Assembly (NCBI GenBank): GCA_947053925.1
Contig: CAMRUG010000002.1
Coordinates: 34,461-98,460, forward strand
Length of the DNA stretch: 64,000 bases
Reading direction: 5' to 3'
Source of the DNA: an uncultured Clostridia bacterium
Lineage (GTDB): Bacteria; Bacillota; Clostridia; Christensenellales; CAG-314
Shown: in pieces, positions 3,806-63,973 of the stretch
Position numbering within the stretch: position 1 is the stretch's first letter
Layout of the letters: each line of letters starts with the position of its first letter
Translations under genes and position numbers: made by a program
Notes under the pieces: model-generated
The model's database searches: none
What the model was told of the DNA's origin: nothing
Seen by the model: the letters and a program-made list of their open reading frames with translations, nothing else

Positions 3806-4738
3806 ATGGCGGCTATCACTCAGGAACGTATGCTGGAACTGATTGCTATATATGACGCTTTAAAAGTAAAGGTAGAAGCGGTAGACAGAAAATACAGTTT
3901 GGATTACCACGAACCGCTTATAGATATGCCCGAAAGTTTAAATCTGACTAAACTCGAATTTATTCCAAAAACAGAGCAGGAACTGACGGAATTAGCGAAT
4001 AGACAGGTTGAGGCGACGTATATTTCCAAGCAAAGGCAACTCGATACTTCCAAAAACAACAGTATGCAAAGCATAAACAAAAAGTATGCCGATTTGGCGG
4101 AAGAATTGCGCGTAAAGTCTCAGACTCTGTTAAACAATTATAATGCCGCTTGCGATAAACTCAAAATAAAACTTATCAATAACGGACTGATGTATTCTAC
4201 CGTCAACAGTAAAGCCAATGCACAAGCGCGCGACGATTACGACAAAAGCGTCCGCGAGTTAAACGCGCAGTATGACGTCAAGCGCGAACAAATCGACGAT
4301 GAAAAAAAATATATCGAAACGTCTTATAACCAAAACTGTCTGTCGCTTGCCGATGAACAAAAAGCGGCGGCGCTGAAAGTGTACGACAGTCTTGTTGAAT
4401 CTCAGTATAAGGAAGAGCAAAGCGTTGACAAGTACAACACGGGTTTGGACGAAAAAGAAGCCAAGTATCAAGCCGCCCGCGCAAAAGCGATAGAGTACGC
4501 CTGGGAAGCGGAGTACGACCGTGCGTTCAACGCGGCAAAACTGTATCAGCAAATGGGCGCAAACGGCTTTCAGGAAATGAAACTGACGGAAAAACTCAAC
4601 TTGTGCAAACAGGCGTTTATGCCGCTGAAACGCAACGAAGCGCAGACTCTGCTTACGGTGGACTCCTTTCTCAAAACGCATTTGCTAGATTATTACTCTG
4701 CGTTTGTCGACTGGATTAACTACGCGCTTATCGCTTGA
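3806..4738 (+). CDS. Hypothetical coiled-coil phage protein (310 aa)
   Basis: The ATG lies 3 nt after the previous stop. The product is rich in K/E/Q/A heptad-like sequence. It is the last ORF of the module. Confidence 0.5.
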   Translation: MAAITQERMLELIAIYDALKVKVEAVDRKYSLDYHEPLIDMPESLNLTKLEFIPKTEQELTELANRQVEATYISKQRQLDTSKNNSMQSINKKYADLAEELRVKSQTLLNNYNAACDKLKIKLINNGLMYSTVNSKANAQARDDYDKSVRELNAQYDVKREQIDDEKKYIETSYNQNCLSLADEQKAAALKVYDSLVESQYKEEQSVDKYNTGLDEKEAKYQAARAKAIEYAWEAEYDRAFNAAKLYQQMGANGFQEMKLTEKLNLCKQAFMPLKRNEAQTLLTVDSFLKTHLLDYYSAFVDWINYALIA

Positions 4739-5065
4739 TTTTAGAGTATCCGAACTTGTAAGGTCTAGGCACGTTAAGCGCGTTTAAATCAGTCTAGACA
4801 TACTCACAATACTAAGGACTAATTCTGTTTTGCTTGCCTATGCGCCGCATTAAATTTGTAAAAAACCGCAAGGCGCATACAGGGCAGAGATAGTGCAGAA
4901 TTGACGAATTGCAGAGTAAATTAAATGATATTTGACTAGGCAATACGCAAGGACACAATACGCGTTTGCGGATTTAATGTGTTTGTGTGCTGTTTTGCTA
5001 ACTGTCAGATTTTAAACAATTAGTGCATTTTAGGTATTATTAAGTTAAAATAATTTTGAGATTGC

Positions 5066-5100
5066 TATCCGCTTCGGAATTTGCCGAGGCGGATATTTTG
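5066..5100 (+). terminator. Rho-independent terminator
   Basis: TATCCGCTTCGG (5066-5077) pairs with CCGAGGCGGATA (5084-5095), 12 bp with one G-U, followed by TTTTG. Confidence 0.6.
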
Positions 5101-5417
5101 TGTATCGACAGAAAACGGACGGTATATGTGTTTTTTAAAATTTTATTTTTCTAAGGTTGGTTATTTTGAGAAAACGGCAATTCAGTCTGAAAATTGCAAA
5201 ACCGAAAAAGCGTATTGCACAAGCGAATGTAAATAAAACTATACGGCAGTGCAATCAGTCAAACGGAAAAACGGAACGCACATTTGCGCACAGTTAATCA
5301 AACGCTTCTTAATGTATTTCGGTATGAGCGTAGGCTGTAAACCGTTAGGCGTAAAGCCGCAATATTCCTTTATTATTCCGCAAATTTTTGAGATTAGCGA
5401 AAATATATGTTAAAGAG

Positions 5418-5446
5418 TTGAAAAAAAGCCTTGTTTGGTGTATACT
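5418..5446 (+). promoter_or_regulatory. Sigma-A-type promoter
   Basis: TTGAAA (5418-5423), a 17-nt spacer and TATACT (5441-5446), with TG at -15/-14. Confidence 0.55.
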
Positions 5447-5551
5447 TACAATCATCGGTATGTCGGTTTTAATAGCTTTTTATTAAGTTGTTTTATCGGC
5501 AGTAATCCGTTAAACCGATTCAATATATCGGCTGATGTCGGAGTTAAAATA

Positions 5552-6373
5552 ATGAAAGTTCAACGCAAATCTGCAATAGCATATTTATTCAGGAATTTCT
5601 GGCAACTCGTTTTAGTTTCGTTGCCGGCGGCTGTCTTGTTGGGCTTTTTTGTTACTCCGTCGGACGAAATCACCTTTATGCAGTCGCTTGCGCGCGGCGA
5701 ATTGACGCTTGAAAACTATTTCGGGGCGTATGCCAACGCTTACAGCGCGCTAAGACTGGTTAATAACTGGTGGGTAATTATCATATCTTTTGTTTTGGTA
5801 TGTTTTACTTTCAGCGTTTTGATAGTAAAAATAGACCGTCATATGCGAGTCGGAGAAATGGTTGCGTTTCCTTTAAAACGCTCTTTTGCGCTGTTCCCGT
5901 TAATACTCGCGTATGTTTTCATTTGGTTTTTAGCGTCCGAAATCGCTAACTTCGTCGGAATAGGCTTGATGTATATTTTTAAGTTTATAAATAACGTCGG
6001 AGCAGTAGTATCGATCGGAGTAGTTTCGGATTTTCTGGCAAATATGTTTGTTACGGGATTGTTTTTCAGACTGATAATTACAATTCCGCTCAAAGTCAGC
6101 GAAAATTACAGACTCAATATAGCATTATCGTATTCCGCGCGTTGTTCTGCCGGACACAAAGGAATTTTGTGGGGATTGACGTTCGGATACGTTTTGGGCA
6201 GATACGCCGTTATGTGCTTGGGGTATTTGCTTATGCCGTTCAATTTGGACGTGCTTGTGTATGCCTTAGCGTACCTGTTCTGTATTGCTTATATACCCTG
6301 TCTCTCTTACAAACTGTATCACGATACGGTGGGCGGCGAACGCAGAGATATTTCGGAAATTATTTTCTATTAG
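5552..6373 (+). CDS. Multi-pass membrane protein, function unknown
   Basis: Track ORF 5435..6373. The ATG at 5552 has a GGAG RBS (MKVQRKSAIAYLFRNFW...). About 6 hydrophobic segments. Confidence 0.7.
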   Translation: MKVQRKSAIAYLFRNFWQLVLVSLPAAVLLGFFVTPSDEITFMQSLARGELTLENYFGAYANAYSALRLVNNWWVIIISFVLVCFTFSVLIVKIDRHMRVGEMVAFPLKRSFALFPLILAYVFIWFLASEIANFVGIGLMYIFKFINNVGAVVSIGVVSDFLANMFVTGLFFRLIITIPLKVSENYRLNIALSYSARCSAGHKGILWGLTFGYVLGRYAVMCLGYLLMPFNLDVLVYALAYLFCIAYIPCLSYKLYHDTVGGERRDISEIIFY

Positions 6374-58409: not shown

Positions 58410-58502
58410 ATGAAAAACAAAATTTATTGTATCAAATTACCTCAGCCGTTAGGAACTGTCTTAAAGCTTATTTTAGGAAAATTAGTAATAGGTAAGAAAT
58501 AG
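58410..58502 (+). CDS. spoVM: Stage V sporulation protein M (30-aa amphipathic peptide); absent from the ORF track because it is under 60 aa
   Basis: MKNKIYCIKLPQPLGTVLKLILGKLVIGKK aligns with B. subtilis SpoVM (MKFYTIKLPKFLGGIVRAMLGSFRKD). GGAGA RBS, a terminator directly downstream, and conserved rpe-spoVM-rpmB synteny. Confidence 0.8.
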   Translation: MKNKIYCIKLPQPLGTVLKLILGKLVIGKK

Positions 58503-58506
58503 CAAT

Positions 58507-58542
58507 AAGCCGCTAACTGTTTTAACATTTAGCGGCTTTTAT
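58507..58542 (+). terminator. Rho-independent terminator after spoVM
   Basis: AAGCCGCTAA (58507-16) pairs with TTAGCGGCTT (58529-38), followed by TTAT and a T7 run at 58547-53. Confidence 0.65.
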
Positions 58543-58654
58543 ACTGTTTTTTTAAATTCATATTTAAATATTTTATAAAATACAATTAAAAAATTATAAA
58601 ACGGCATACTGACTAAGGAATATTTGCAAGAACACGAAATATTTTATAACAGCT

Positions 58655-58716
58655 ATAACAAAGTTTAACGATATTTAACTATAATTAACTACGGTTAATC
58701 ACTCGCTATTACATCG
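58655..58716 (+). repeat. Phased-pentamer element, copy 1
   Basis: ATAAC/TTAAC/TTAAC/TTAAC/TTAAT start at 58655, 58665, 58675, 58685 and 58695. 50 of 62 nt are identical, ungapped, to 63573-63634. Confidence 0.85.
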
Positions 58717-58777
58717 TATCACACGATAAAATAAAGGTTTGCGTAAAAATATATTCGTGTACGATATAATAATATAT

Positions 58778-58843
58778 TTAATTAAGTTTAACGGCACTTA
58801 ACTACGACTGACTACGTCTAACAACCATTAAACATCACATAAC
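58778..58843 (+). repeat. Phased-pentamer element, copy 2 (degenerate)
   Basis: TTAAT/TTAAC/TTAAC/CTGAC/CTAAC/TTAAA start at 58778, 58788, 58798, 58808, 58818 and 58828. Shares AAGTTTAACG with copy 1. Confidence 0.7.
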
Positions 58844-58990
58844 GTGAACCGTTAATAAGTATTGGTTTGTTTTGTACGTGTGTGATATATTTATTAAATC
58901 ATAAATTATAATTCATCTGCATTGCGTTACTTGAGTTGTAGTGCATTTTTACTTCAAATAGTTTTTTTAAAGTAAAAAATCTAAAAATTT

Positions 58991-62872: not shown

Positions 62873-63283
62873 ATGAAGTGTTTTATACATATGGATACTG
62901 AAGCAGTGTCAGTCTGCAAACATTGCGGTAAAGCGATGTGCATTAACTGCTCATCTTATTCGCAACATAACGGCATTTGTCCTGAGTGTAAACTTGACGA
63001 ATATATAGAAGAACGTAACGAGCTGTATGATGCTTTACAAAAAAATAAATCCTCTATAATCAAAAGTTCTGTTTTTGCAGTTTTGCTTGCAGTTATAGCG
63101 GTTTTTTTAGGCGTTAAAGTTACAGTGTATTGTTATGCTTTGCTTGTAGGCACATTGGCATTTGCAATACGTATTGCTGTATTGGTAGTTCGTAGGAAAC
63201 CGATAAACGAACGCGTCGAATTCTTAACGGATGAAATTGATAAATTGACATTAGCATTGCAAAAGGGCAGTAGGAGTATTTAG
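62873..63283 (+). CDS. Zinc-ribbon/B-box-like membrane protein
   Basis: CxxC pairs in the N-terminal 40 aa (CKHCG, CINC, CPEC), followed by two TM helices. Confidence 0.7.
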   Translation: MKCFIHMDTEAVSVCKHCGKAMCINCSSYSQHNGICPECKLDEYIEERNELYDALQKNKSSIIKSSVFAVLLAVIAVFLGVKVTVYCYALLVGTLAFAIRIAVLVVRRKPINERVEFLTDEIDKLTLALQKGSRSI

Positions 63284-63358: not shown

Positions 63359-63572
63359 GTTGAAAACTATCTATGCGCTTGGTAAGATATTAACTATGTG
63401 TACATATTTTGCGTGTAAAAGCAAATCAAAAAGTAAAAATATATTTTATCGTATACAAATACGATTTTATACCAGTAATTACTTATTTATGTGATACAAT
63501 ATAATGAGTTATTAGCAAACGTTAATCGTATTAAAAGTCATCAGTAGTTGTTGGTACGATATACTAGCATAC

Positions 63573-63634
63573 ATAACAAAGATTAACGATGTCTAACTAT
63601 AACTAATTGTGTTTAATCGCTCGCTATAATGTCG
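63573..63634 (+). repeat. Phased-pentamer element, copy 3
   Basis: ATAAC/TTAAC/CTAAC/CTAAT/TTAAT start at 63573, 63583, 63593, 63603 and 63613, followed by TATAAT at 63625-63630. Confidence 0.85.
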
Positions 63635-63856
63635 CTCATTCAGAAAGCTTACTCGGCGAATAGAAATTGTTAAAATAATTAAGTGAAGCGCACACTAAAT
63701 TTCGATTGTGTTTTTTATAAATACATATTTTTGCGATTTCTTCTGCATAATTTTAAATATTAGCGAATAAGCAAAGTTGCTATAATGATAAATTAGGCAT
63801 TACAAGTCTAATATTTTGTTTTTGCAATATAATTATATAAATATTAGCTAAAACTC

Positions 63857-63899: not shown

Positions 63900-63973
63900 G
63901 GCACCATAGCCAAGTGGTAAGGCAGAGCTCTGCAAAAGCTCCACCCCCAGTCCGAATCTGGGTGGTGCCTCCA
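63900..63973 (+). tRNA. tRNA-Cys (anticodon GCA), CCA encoded
   Basis: Acceptor stem GGCACCA/TGGTGCC, anticodon arm GAGCT-CTGCAAA-AGCTC, T arm CCCAG-TCCGAAT-CTGGG, discriminator T and CCA. Confidence 0.9.

Follow-up and report, generated by a model that had tools for sequence, protein, structure and literature searches.

What is the array of short, regularly spaced pentamers that begins at position 58655 of this stretch of contig CAMRUG010000002.1, from an uncultured Clostridia bacterium? The stretch, hereafter called the window, comprises 64,000 nt in all. From its letters, an earlier reader (whose account we refer to as the original prediction) had described a 62-nt non-coding element at 58655-58716, built from YTAAY pentamers that recur exactly every 10 bp, with a second copy 4.9 kb away, and had likened it to the binding arrays of OmpR/PhoB-family response regulators. 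We find instead that the array is the front half of a larger repeat unit of ~121 bp, which is very probably a mobile element. The unit defines a previously undescribed family, akin to miniature inverted-repeat transposable elements (MITEs), repetitive extragenic palindromic (REP) sequences and recombination cassettes. As an overall explanation, we lean towards one in which the three conserved parts of the unit (a box, the pentamer array and a hairpin) serve its own propagation.

The identity claimed for the two copies was borne out. Positions 58655-58716 and 63573-63634 align without gaps at 50 of 62 positions (81%), and the pentamers start where they had been placed, at 58655, 58665, 58675, 58685 and 58695 in the first copy and within 63573-63617 in the second. 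The pattern is also commoner than in shuffled sequence: (YTAAY-N5)x2-YTAAY matches five times in the window, every time within the repeat elements, against 0.04 ± 0.20 expected from dinucleotide-preserving shuffles of the window. When both strands were scanned more loosely for at least four in-phase YTRAY pentamers, only the three array places were returned, and neither scan of the 64-kb window found an array apart from the rest of the unit. The description of a 62-nt element in two copies held only in part. The element is indeed non-coding and repeated, but the 62-mer consists of the array plus the first few bases of a hairpin 5′ arm; the true unit is ~121 bp long (~131 bp counting a box at both ends), and the window holds more copies of it. 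Three lie on the + strand (with arrays from 58655, 58778 and 63573), and a decayed fourth lies on the − strand (63438-63566). The middle copy (58778-58848) starts 123 nt after the first. We refer to the units as c1 to c4, and their features in the window are:

58642..58772, + strand: unit c1, stem type i (R1 covariance model 112.5 bits, E 1e-18; nhmmer E 5e-25)
58645-58650, + strand: 5′ box of c1, a degenerate TATAAC, as read in the sequence
58655..58699, + strand: c1 pentamers ATAAC, TTAAC, TTAAC, TTAAC and TTAAT (pattern scans and per-column information)
58707..58771, + strand: c1 hairpin, with 5′ arm TATTACATCGTATCACACG at 58707-58725, a loop of ~30 nt and 3′ arm CGTGTACGATATAATA at 58756-58771
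58765..58770, + strand: TATAAT box common to c1 and c2, both the end of the c1 3′ arm and the 5′ box of c2
58765..58895, + strand: unit c2, stem type ii-like (nhmmer E 2.7e-22)
63560..63675, + strand: unit c3, an old, diverged copy (R1 57.4 bits, E 4e-8; nhmmer E 1.8e-15)
63438..63566, − strand: unit c4, degenerate and overlapping c3 at the box (R1 53.4 bits, E 2e-7)

To describe the unit, we aligned 20 copies, from the window and from ten loci of four GTDB species-representative genomes. The alignment was then enlarged to 23 units with two metagenome contigs and a second strain, and all of these can be aligned end to end. The loci were examined over 8-15 kb each, and the total sample amounts to ~35 units from five species and two metagenome contigs. 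With few units from few species, the sequences are phylogenetically non-independent. The unit has this order of parts: a TATAAT(A) box, AGCATAYA, ~10 nt, the pentamers, CTCGCTATTAC, the hairpin, and ATAAT(A), such that an identical box opens and closes it. The core of the array is four YTAAC, each usually followed by TAC, in exact 10-nt steps, with one or two weaker pentamers on each side, making four to six YTAAC(TAC)nn decamers per unit. The hairpin has the consensus 5′ arm ATCGTA[T]CACG, a variable loop of ~30 nt and the 3′ arm CGTGTACGAT. TATAAT is invariant in 20 of 21 non-redundant units, solo ones included, and stands at a fixed 17-18 nt from the first pentamer; the pentamers occupy the region 17-55 nt downstream of this box, which is the sole conserved promoter-like box of the unit. 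Units occur alone, head-to-tail with a common box, or head-to-head. Head-to-tail arrays have a period of 121-123 nt and include c1 and c2 in the window, three units each at loci L084 and L100, and four at L051, while head-to-head pairs are represented by c3/c4 and by L114.

The window copies differ in how well they have been preserved. The centroid fold of c1 contains the hairpin and no other structure. The pentamers of c2 start at 58778, 58788, 58798, 58808 (CTGAC) and 58818, and folding pairs its hairpin arms ATCACATAACGT (58834-58845) and ACGTGTGTGAT (58876-58886); with the covariance model, the counterpart of c2 reaches 109.5 bits at strain locus L009 and 110.6 at L010. The older c3 retains the box as TATACT (63560-63565) and its pentamers at 63573-63617, and single-nucleotide differences between strains hit both. 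Its hairpin has, tentatively, been replaced by a different and weaker pairing, read by eye, of TGTCGCTCA (63630-63638) with TGAAGCGCACA (63684-63694). The degenerate c4 was found by nhmmer with E 1e-5 in the window and 1e-9 in strain locus L009.

The evidence that the unit moves comes from comparisons between strains. At locus L121 (MGBC160019), the stop codon of ileS is followed, 16 nt on, by the start of a solo unit. Loci L166, L167 and L168, from other samples, lack exactly the 121 nt present in L121, although the left flank is 99.7% identical over 1.5 kb. The empty site contains a single TATAATA, the filled site one per junction. At 93% identity, the extra unit closely matches a unit on another contig (L084), but it shares only 58% identity with the adjoining resident, a degenerate unit immediately downstream of the insertion that is common to both strains; the L121 unit is therefore not a local duplication. 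To judge from these alignments, it landed on the box of the resident unit, and insertion onto a resident's box is the route by which head-to-tail arrays sharing boxes would arise. The box that corresponds to the c1/c2 junction is the point of insertion and exchange in the related strains. This is the only clean filled/empty pair, and its direction cannot be polarized.

A second kind of change was seen at the locus in which an array lies between udk and a GNAT gene. Between L084 and L178 the coding flanks are 98% identical, third codon positions 96% and the flanking spacers 97-98%. Unit 1, by contrast, has just 69% identity, a type i unit having given way to a type ii unit; the divergent stretch opens immediately after one TATAATA and closes at the following one. 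In unit 2 (83% identity) the 5′ half is the same in both strains and the loop has been exchanged for one resembling that of L019; unit 3 is 92% identical. Since such diverged units lie within near-identical flanks, the units must turn over far faster than neutral neighbouring sites, and do so by whole units or modules. Taken together, these comparisons show the unit behaving as a small non-autonomous mobile element, with exact gain or loss at the 7-bp TATAATA and exchange between two boxes, and we hold with considerable confidence that the element is a mobile repeat unit.

Several points weigh against this conclusion. No transposase or recombinase is linked to the units; across ~25 loci none adjoins them, and no transposase, integrase, reverse transcriptase or response regulator gene lies consistently nearby. 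Terminal inverted repeats are weak (by our count by eye, GCATACA/TGTACGA match at 5 of 7 positions, or 9 of 12 with the box), and no insertion sequence (IS) bearing such ends was present in the 8-15 kb loci. The single 121-nt difference could equally be explained as a slippage deletion between two 7-bp boxes, and ectopic gene conversion, with conserved blocks as its anchors, could account for the unit swap in place of site-specific recombination. The + strand bias of the hairpin described below, the invariant TATAAT at a fixed distance and the unstructured array would also fit a transcribed RNA. Finally, the sample is confined to five species and ~35 units. The original prediction had named the ends of a known IS or MITE as what would overturn it. 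The copies are not the ends of a known IS, but they do form a dispersed, strain-polymorphic, MITE-like family, so that this objection holds in spirit.

How widely is the unit distributed? A scan of the species-representative genome collection for phased TTAAC returned 109 loci. Most of these were discarded as relatives, being plain 10-bp tandem repeats from unrelated phyla. True members, which share far more than the pentamers, were found at ten loci in four metagenome-assembled genomes (MAGs): ‘Corallococcus sp.’ NALB_7961_6 and NALB_7811_3, Christensenellaceae MGBC160019 and Eubacteriales MGBC159553. The same copies recur, at ~99% identity, on contigs of the window's own species, and of seven matches in JGI metagenomes only two were true members. 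At the orthologous loci of sister species, in which the DAK2 protein is 85-95% identical to that of the window, neither a hidden Markov model (HMM) nor the covariance model detected a unit, and the intergenic regions there are shorter where they could be inspected. Homologues of the window's DAK2 protein, which assign the window to uncultured gut Clostridia, come from deposits named ‘Clostridiales bacterium’, ‘Corallococcus sp. CAG:1435’ and ‘Candidatus Fimimonas’. In IMG/VR, the conserved 17-mer had no matches, and a looser pattern for the 3′ arm matched 34 loci, none of which fitted the unit HMM. No copies were found by blastn in PLSDB plasmids or INPHARED phages. In Rfam, only tRNA-Cys passed the gathering threshold and nothing matched within the units at E ≤ 10. 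A literature search for TTAAC/GTTAA or UUAAC direct repeats and for pentamers with a 10-bp period returned only generic papers on the OmpR family. The family is restricted to a small clade of uncultured gut Clostridia (‘Corallococcus sp.’ CAG:1435-like, Christensenellaceae and Eubacteriales MAGs).

Three unrelated MAGs were also noticed, each with several dispersed copies of its own element of three to five TTAAC decamers, none homologous to the unit. In a Saccharibacteria MAG (L026, L035, L063, L080, L081 and L124), TTA-TTAAC-NN repeats lie directly 5′ of the starts of open reading frames (ORFs); in a Verrucomicrobiota MAG (L030, L049, L075 and L112), CC-TTAAC-TAGG repeats follow an A-run; and a Bacteroidota MAG carries a further element at L020, L047 and L103. 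This suggests that phased TTAAC arrays recur as multi-copy intergenic elements in other phyla.

Are the pentamers themselves conserved? Across the 21 non-redundant units, the pentamers are kept more strongly than the spacers, a comparison that the original prediction had proposed: information content is 2.0 bits at the TAA cores of three of the four repeats and ~1 bit in the spacers, with the first three spacer bases (TAC) partly kept. Within the unit, conservation peaks at the box and the TAA cores, is next highest in the stem and, by inspection of the alignment, is lowest in the loops. These figures bear on the idea that the array is a relic of a 10-bp minisatellite, some eight copies of a repeat such as CAT-TTAAC-TA, which seeded a selfish repeat and owes its conservation to recent ancestry and gene conversion. 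In keeping with such an origin, one can follow by eye a 10-nt register for about eight rows, beginning at the box and running through the 5′ hairpin arm, perfect 10-bp tandem repeats containing TTAAC are common in unrelated genomes, and the units are homogenized and exchanged among loci. However, the cores stay invariant while the spacer bases, which are position-specific, differ among subfamilies. The unit alignment contains no length variants of the array in steps of 10 nt, and since the repeat number is stable in this sense, the array is not currently an unstable minisatellite. Moreover, the loops of the same units are far more variable than the cores, which argues that the cores are under selection and not merely young. 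We consider the relic explanation unlikely; the pentamers appear to be under a constraint of their own. The suggestion in the original prediction that phased TTAA steps would bend the DNA intrinsically is questionable. Work by Hagerman is said to have found that T4A4 tracts, unlike A4T4, are not curved.

The second half of the unit folds. In the 23-unit alignment, 91% of the cells of a 15-pair stem are standard pairs, compared with 18-59% when the partner columns are slid; five of the pairs have changed on both sides, and the covariation score was reached by none of 500 shuffles. Two stem subtypes, ATCGTA..CACG / CGTG..TACGAT and ACACA..CACG / CGTG..TGTGT, occur within the same arrays, which favours base pairing over an inverted repeat bound by protein. 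On the + strand there are 12 G.U pairs against three A.C, indicating that folding takes place on this strand, in RNA or in single-stranded DNA. An extension of the stem through TATTA / TAATA is possible, in which case the 3′ box pairs with a conserved CTATTAC block; the extended stem contains a bulged T (alignment column 78) and a C.A mismatch (columns 71/125). In RNA centroid folds, the array is unpaired and the hairpin is the sole consistent structure. Its stability is moderate (about −12 kcal/mol), and the folding energies of the units are ordinary relative to shuffles (z −0.8 to +1.1), a range that rules out a thermodynamically exceptional RNA.

Degenerate relatives of the unit are present at L019 5350-5700 (− strand), L121 5768-5890 and L166 5648-5769. 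They retain the TTAATTACATCGTA...TACGATATAAT hairpin module and have either lost the pentamer array or have a different small hairpin, CCGG...CCGG, instead. One stem variant among them, ATCGTAAAACG / CGTTGTTTTACGAT, has again changed on both sides. The hairpin module may thus be the older core of the family, as far as these copies can tell.

A folded, strand-specific module next to a TATAAT raises the possibility that the units are small RNA (sRNA) genes or transcribed modules, with mobility being secondary. TATAAT would then be a sigma-A −10 element driving an RNA of ~115 nt, the unstructured 5′ half of which, with its YUAAC sites, would offer an RNA-binding protein, or complementary GUUAA sequences, a multivalent sponge or seed, with the 3′ hairpin stabilizing it. 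Support for this idea comes from the position of the box, which lies 17-18 nt before the first pentamer in solo units as in the others, from the compensatory changes and G.U excess in the hairpin, and from the unpaired array. In addition, if a hairpin that we see by eye downstream of the gene pair preceding c1 (described below) terminates transcription, expression of c1 would need a promoter of its own. On the other hand, no −35 element is found 16-18 nt from the box (some units have a TTGCGA-like hexamer 20 nt upstream of it), and at none of the + strand boxes does a promoter scan report a sigma-70 promoter. The hairpin is not followed by a U-tract, nor is an intrinsic terminator called in the units, which fold no better than shuffles. 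The units keep no conserved position in sister species and match nothing in Rfam, and their replacement between strains is much faster than neutral change in the flanks. We rate this explanation as somewhat unlikely. A conventional bacterial sRNA gene was rejected, given that there is a −10-like box with neither −35 nor U-tract, the locus is not conserved and only the hairpin covaries.

Where the units lie helps to assess two further explanations. In the window, c1 and c2 sit between convergent features, with rpe and a small ORF upstream and a PAP2 gene on the opposite strand downstream. A terminator-like hairpin with a T-run at ~58505-58546, after the small ORF, is the by-eye reading mentioned above; a consensus scan did not list it. 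Downstream of c3 and c4, at a distance of ~330 nt, comes a tRNA-Cys gene; in strain locus L011, tRNA-Leu and tRNA-Glu come next. Elsewhere, units are often found 14-26 nt past a stop codon or between convergent genes, and clusters of units are about equally frequent in divergent promoter regions and after stop codons. Their neighbours are unrelated housekeeping genes (ligA, yicC, ileS, udk, a peptidyl-prolyl isomerase, an M14 peptidase and others).

The first of these explanations is the one that the original prediction had proposed, namely that the array is the operator of a host OmpR/PhoB-family response regulator, or of a similar head-to-tail binder, acting on a nearby promoter. Four to six direct repeats with conserved cores in an exact 10-bp phase are what such an operator would look like, and, read on the − strand, the array closely precedes a TATTAT box. 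Among OmpR-family regulators, SaeR (GTTAA-N6-GTTAA) and ArcA recognize half-sites of the GTTAA type. Yet the period is 10 bp and not the 11 bp of SaeR, ArcA and Bacillus subtilis PhoP, and the one conserved + strand box precedes the array. Units follow stop codons or separate convergent genes, and are tied to no gene class; the 64-kb window contains no array without a unit, the same genes in sister species have no sites, and no response regulator gene is linked to the units. The likeness is thus geometric, and the tests of placement and distribution go against an operator, which we regard as very unlikely.

The second explanation assigns the unit a role like that of REP or BOX repeats, in which stop codons in three frames halt ribosomes ahead of the hairpin, and the hairpin protects or insulates the 3′ end of the upstream mRNA. 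Because 10 equals 1 modulo 3, TAA steps through all three + strand frames, and it closes them in 19 of 23 units; closure of all frames on both strands occurred in <2.5% of composition-matched shuffles. At L017, L019, L121 and L178, the unit follows the stop of a co-oriented gene by 14-26 nt. Nonetheless, closing three frames requires neither a 10-nt period nor four to six copies, divergent promoter regions hold about as many clusters as post-stop sites, and the hairpin is only moderately stable. A role of this sort seems to us quite unlikely.

We therefore return to the mobile unit and to how its parts might work. On this view, the box, the array and the hairpin would be the sites that propagation requires in cis, the box supplying the crossover or target core. 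A constant TATAATA fits a recombinase homology core or a very strict target, and a variable target duplication fits less well. The hairpin would be a recognition structure formed by a folded strand, with G.T pairs tolerated on the + strand only, and on folding it would rebuild a duplex copy of the unit junction. That junction, in tandem units GTACGA-TATAATA-GCATAC, is an imperfect palindrome as read by eye. With one pentamer per helical turn, the four to six identical sites would present, on a single face of the DNA, a platform for an oligomerizing, sequence-specific protein, either a recombinase arm-type domain or a factor resembling Xis, a ribbon-helix-helix (RHH) protein or a winged-helix protein. 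This putative protein, encoded elsewhere, would bend the very short element for synapsis. Arrays bound by oligomerizing proteins include those of the OmpR family, MraZ, RHH centromere-binding proteins, the lambda Int arm-type and Xis sites, and the iterons of pMV158 RepB. One site per helical turn is the geometry of such arrays, and we accordingly judge a binding platform to be the likeliest role of the pentamers. As a specific claim, that they bind a protein which mobilizes or bends the element is possible, though we advance it tentatively.

How does the unit compare with known systems? MITEs and mosaic repeats, such as the Correia/nemis and NIME/dRS3 repeats of Neisseria, BOX and RUP of pneumococci and ERIC of enterobacteria, are the closest kind. 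Like them, the unit is short (~120 bp), non-coding, multi-copy, intergenic and confined to one lineage; it is present or absent according to strain with a short direct repeat at the junctions (in one case, L121 versus L166), and it has a long imperfect hairpin, promoter-like boxes and modular arrays. Unlike them, it has terminal inverted repeats that are weak at best and no known parent IS; the same 7-bp TATAATA flanks every copy, in place of the variable target duplication of a MITE; whole units are swapped between boxes in the manner of cassettes; and four to six pentamers are phased with the helical turn. The constant TATAATA junction, the cassette-like arrays, the phased pentamers and the lack of clear terminal repeats or a parent set the unit apart from known small repeats.

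With REP sequences and bacterial interspersed mosaic elements (BIMEs), which are served by REP-associated tyrosine transposases (RAYTs) of the IS200/IS605 Y1 type, the unit shares a dispersed extragenic distribution, an imperfect strand-specific hairpin with a bulged base, a short conserved motif (TTAC in the unit) just 5′ of the stem, and a frequent location past stop codons. It differs in being three to four times longer than a REP, whose imperfect palindrome spans 20-40 nt, in lacking a GTAG-type signature and in forming head-to-tail arrays, whereas the orientation alternates in BIMEs. No RAYT gene turned up in the 8-15 kb loci; whole genomes were not searched.

The unit also resembles integron cassettes and their attC sites. 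Head-to-tail units share a short core and are exchanged precisely, and, as in attC, the hairpin combines an extrahelical base and an unpaired centre with a terminal loop that varies, and its fold rebuilds the junction duplex. The last property also recalls the attP(+) hairpin of CTX phage. In contrast to attC, the cores RYYYAAC/GTTRRRY are absent, the foot of the stem being TATTA / TAATA and the junction core TATAATA; in contrast to integron cassettes, the units have no ORF, and no IntI gene or attI was seen beside the arrays. Going by published surveys, integrons are not known to occur in Firmicutes. The units could conceivably be the ORF-less cassettes of a folded-strand site-specific recombination system new to Firmicutes, with a host or mobile recombinase encoded elsewhere, but we think this improbable. 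In such a system, the recombinase would read the hairpin-rebuilt junction GTACGA-TATAATA-GCATAC, use the pentamers as accessory or arm-type sites and cross over at the 7-bp core TATAATA, and would insert 121-nt elements at promoter-like boxes (TATAATA being the consensus −10 hexamer plus A), a functional parallel to integron attC x attI recombination or to hairpin integration by CTX phage.

Two further comparisons concern the array. OmpR/PhoB-family arrays (OmpR F1-F3, CpxR GTAAA-N5-GTAAA, SaeR, and PhoP TTAACA) are likewise direct head-to-tail repeats at about one helical turn with a GTTAA/TTAAC-like core. The unit arrays differ from them in that they do not lie at the −35 region or upstream of regulated genes, are embedded in a mobile repeat, have a period of exactly 10 bp, and comprise four to six sites each with many arrays per genome. 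The lambda att site (Int P'1-P'3, Xis X1-X1.5-X2) and origins of the pMV158 type, with iterons and a hairpin, also place phased direct repeats next to a core or hairpin, as a platform for an oligomeric recombination or replication protein. This likeness is an architectural analogy only; the unit has no sequence similarity to these sites and no linked integrase, Xis or Rep gene, and is only ~121 bp long.

Other identities were tried and rejected. A type III toxin-antitoxin (ToxI-like) array would have a period of 34-45 nt rather than 121-123 nt, and the downstream genes are unrelated and vary by locus. A retron template, or one of the DRT type, does not agree with stops in all frames. Sporulation-sigma −10 boxes failed on inspection, and the loops are unlikely to be CRISPR-like variable spacers, since they belong to a small number of related families. 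The tandem junction (TTCGT.TA ... GCATACAT) resembles loxP, which we take for a coincidence, as the right-hand inverted arm is missing.

If our description holds, the unit is an undescribed small mobile element, active at the level of strains, in poorly known, uncultured gut bacteria resembling Christensenellales. Its unusual architecture points to a mobilizing protein that is yet to be found. The element would account for puzzling conserved intergenic blocks in these MAGs, cautions against annotating such blocks as regulator sites or sRNAs, and offers units that could be used as strain-typing markers. As each unit brings a consensus −10 box and stops in all frames, insertions could rewire the expression of neighbouring genes. 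Were folded-strand recombination to prove true, it would amount to a new site-specific recombination system with a short, programmable-looking target.

Several features near the units are of interest in themselves. Directly after rpe lies an ORF of 28-30 codons, at 58411-58495 (+ strand) in the window (MKNKIYCIKLPQPLGTVLKLILGKLVIGKK) and at 4680-4772 of L001 (MKNKIYCIKLPSVLGGFLKLILGKLIIGRK), a locus of a sister species whose DAK2 protein is 93% identical to that of the window. It is probably a real gene for a small hydrophobic peptide. Immediately upstream of c4/c3, at 62873-63283 (+ strand), is an ORF of 136 amino acids with an N-terminal CxxC...CxxC zinc-ribbon and hydrophobic stretches; it has only weak, sub-threshold Pfam matches (B-box) and is present only in contigs of the window's own species. 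On the other side of c3, the genes for tRNA-Cys(GCA), tRNA-Leu(UAA) and tRNA-Glu(CTC) are spaced by ~260-310 nt (window 63900-63970; L011 5034-5839). At least tRNA-Cys has its own promoter-like sequence, TTGATT-17-TAGAAT, and the ~1.3 kb beyond these tRNAs in L011 contains no called gene and no Rfam match. Lastly, in one sister species (L174-L177, ~4450-5960), three small genes on the opposite strand, one of which encodes an HTH_3/HTH_31 protein, are inserted between ileS and a methyltransferase gene. Other species have at this position a short spacer or a repeat unit only (L166, L170), and the ileS-methyltransferase spacer seems to be a recurrent insertion site.

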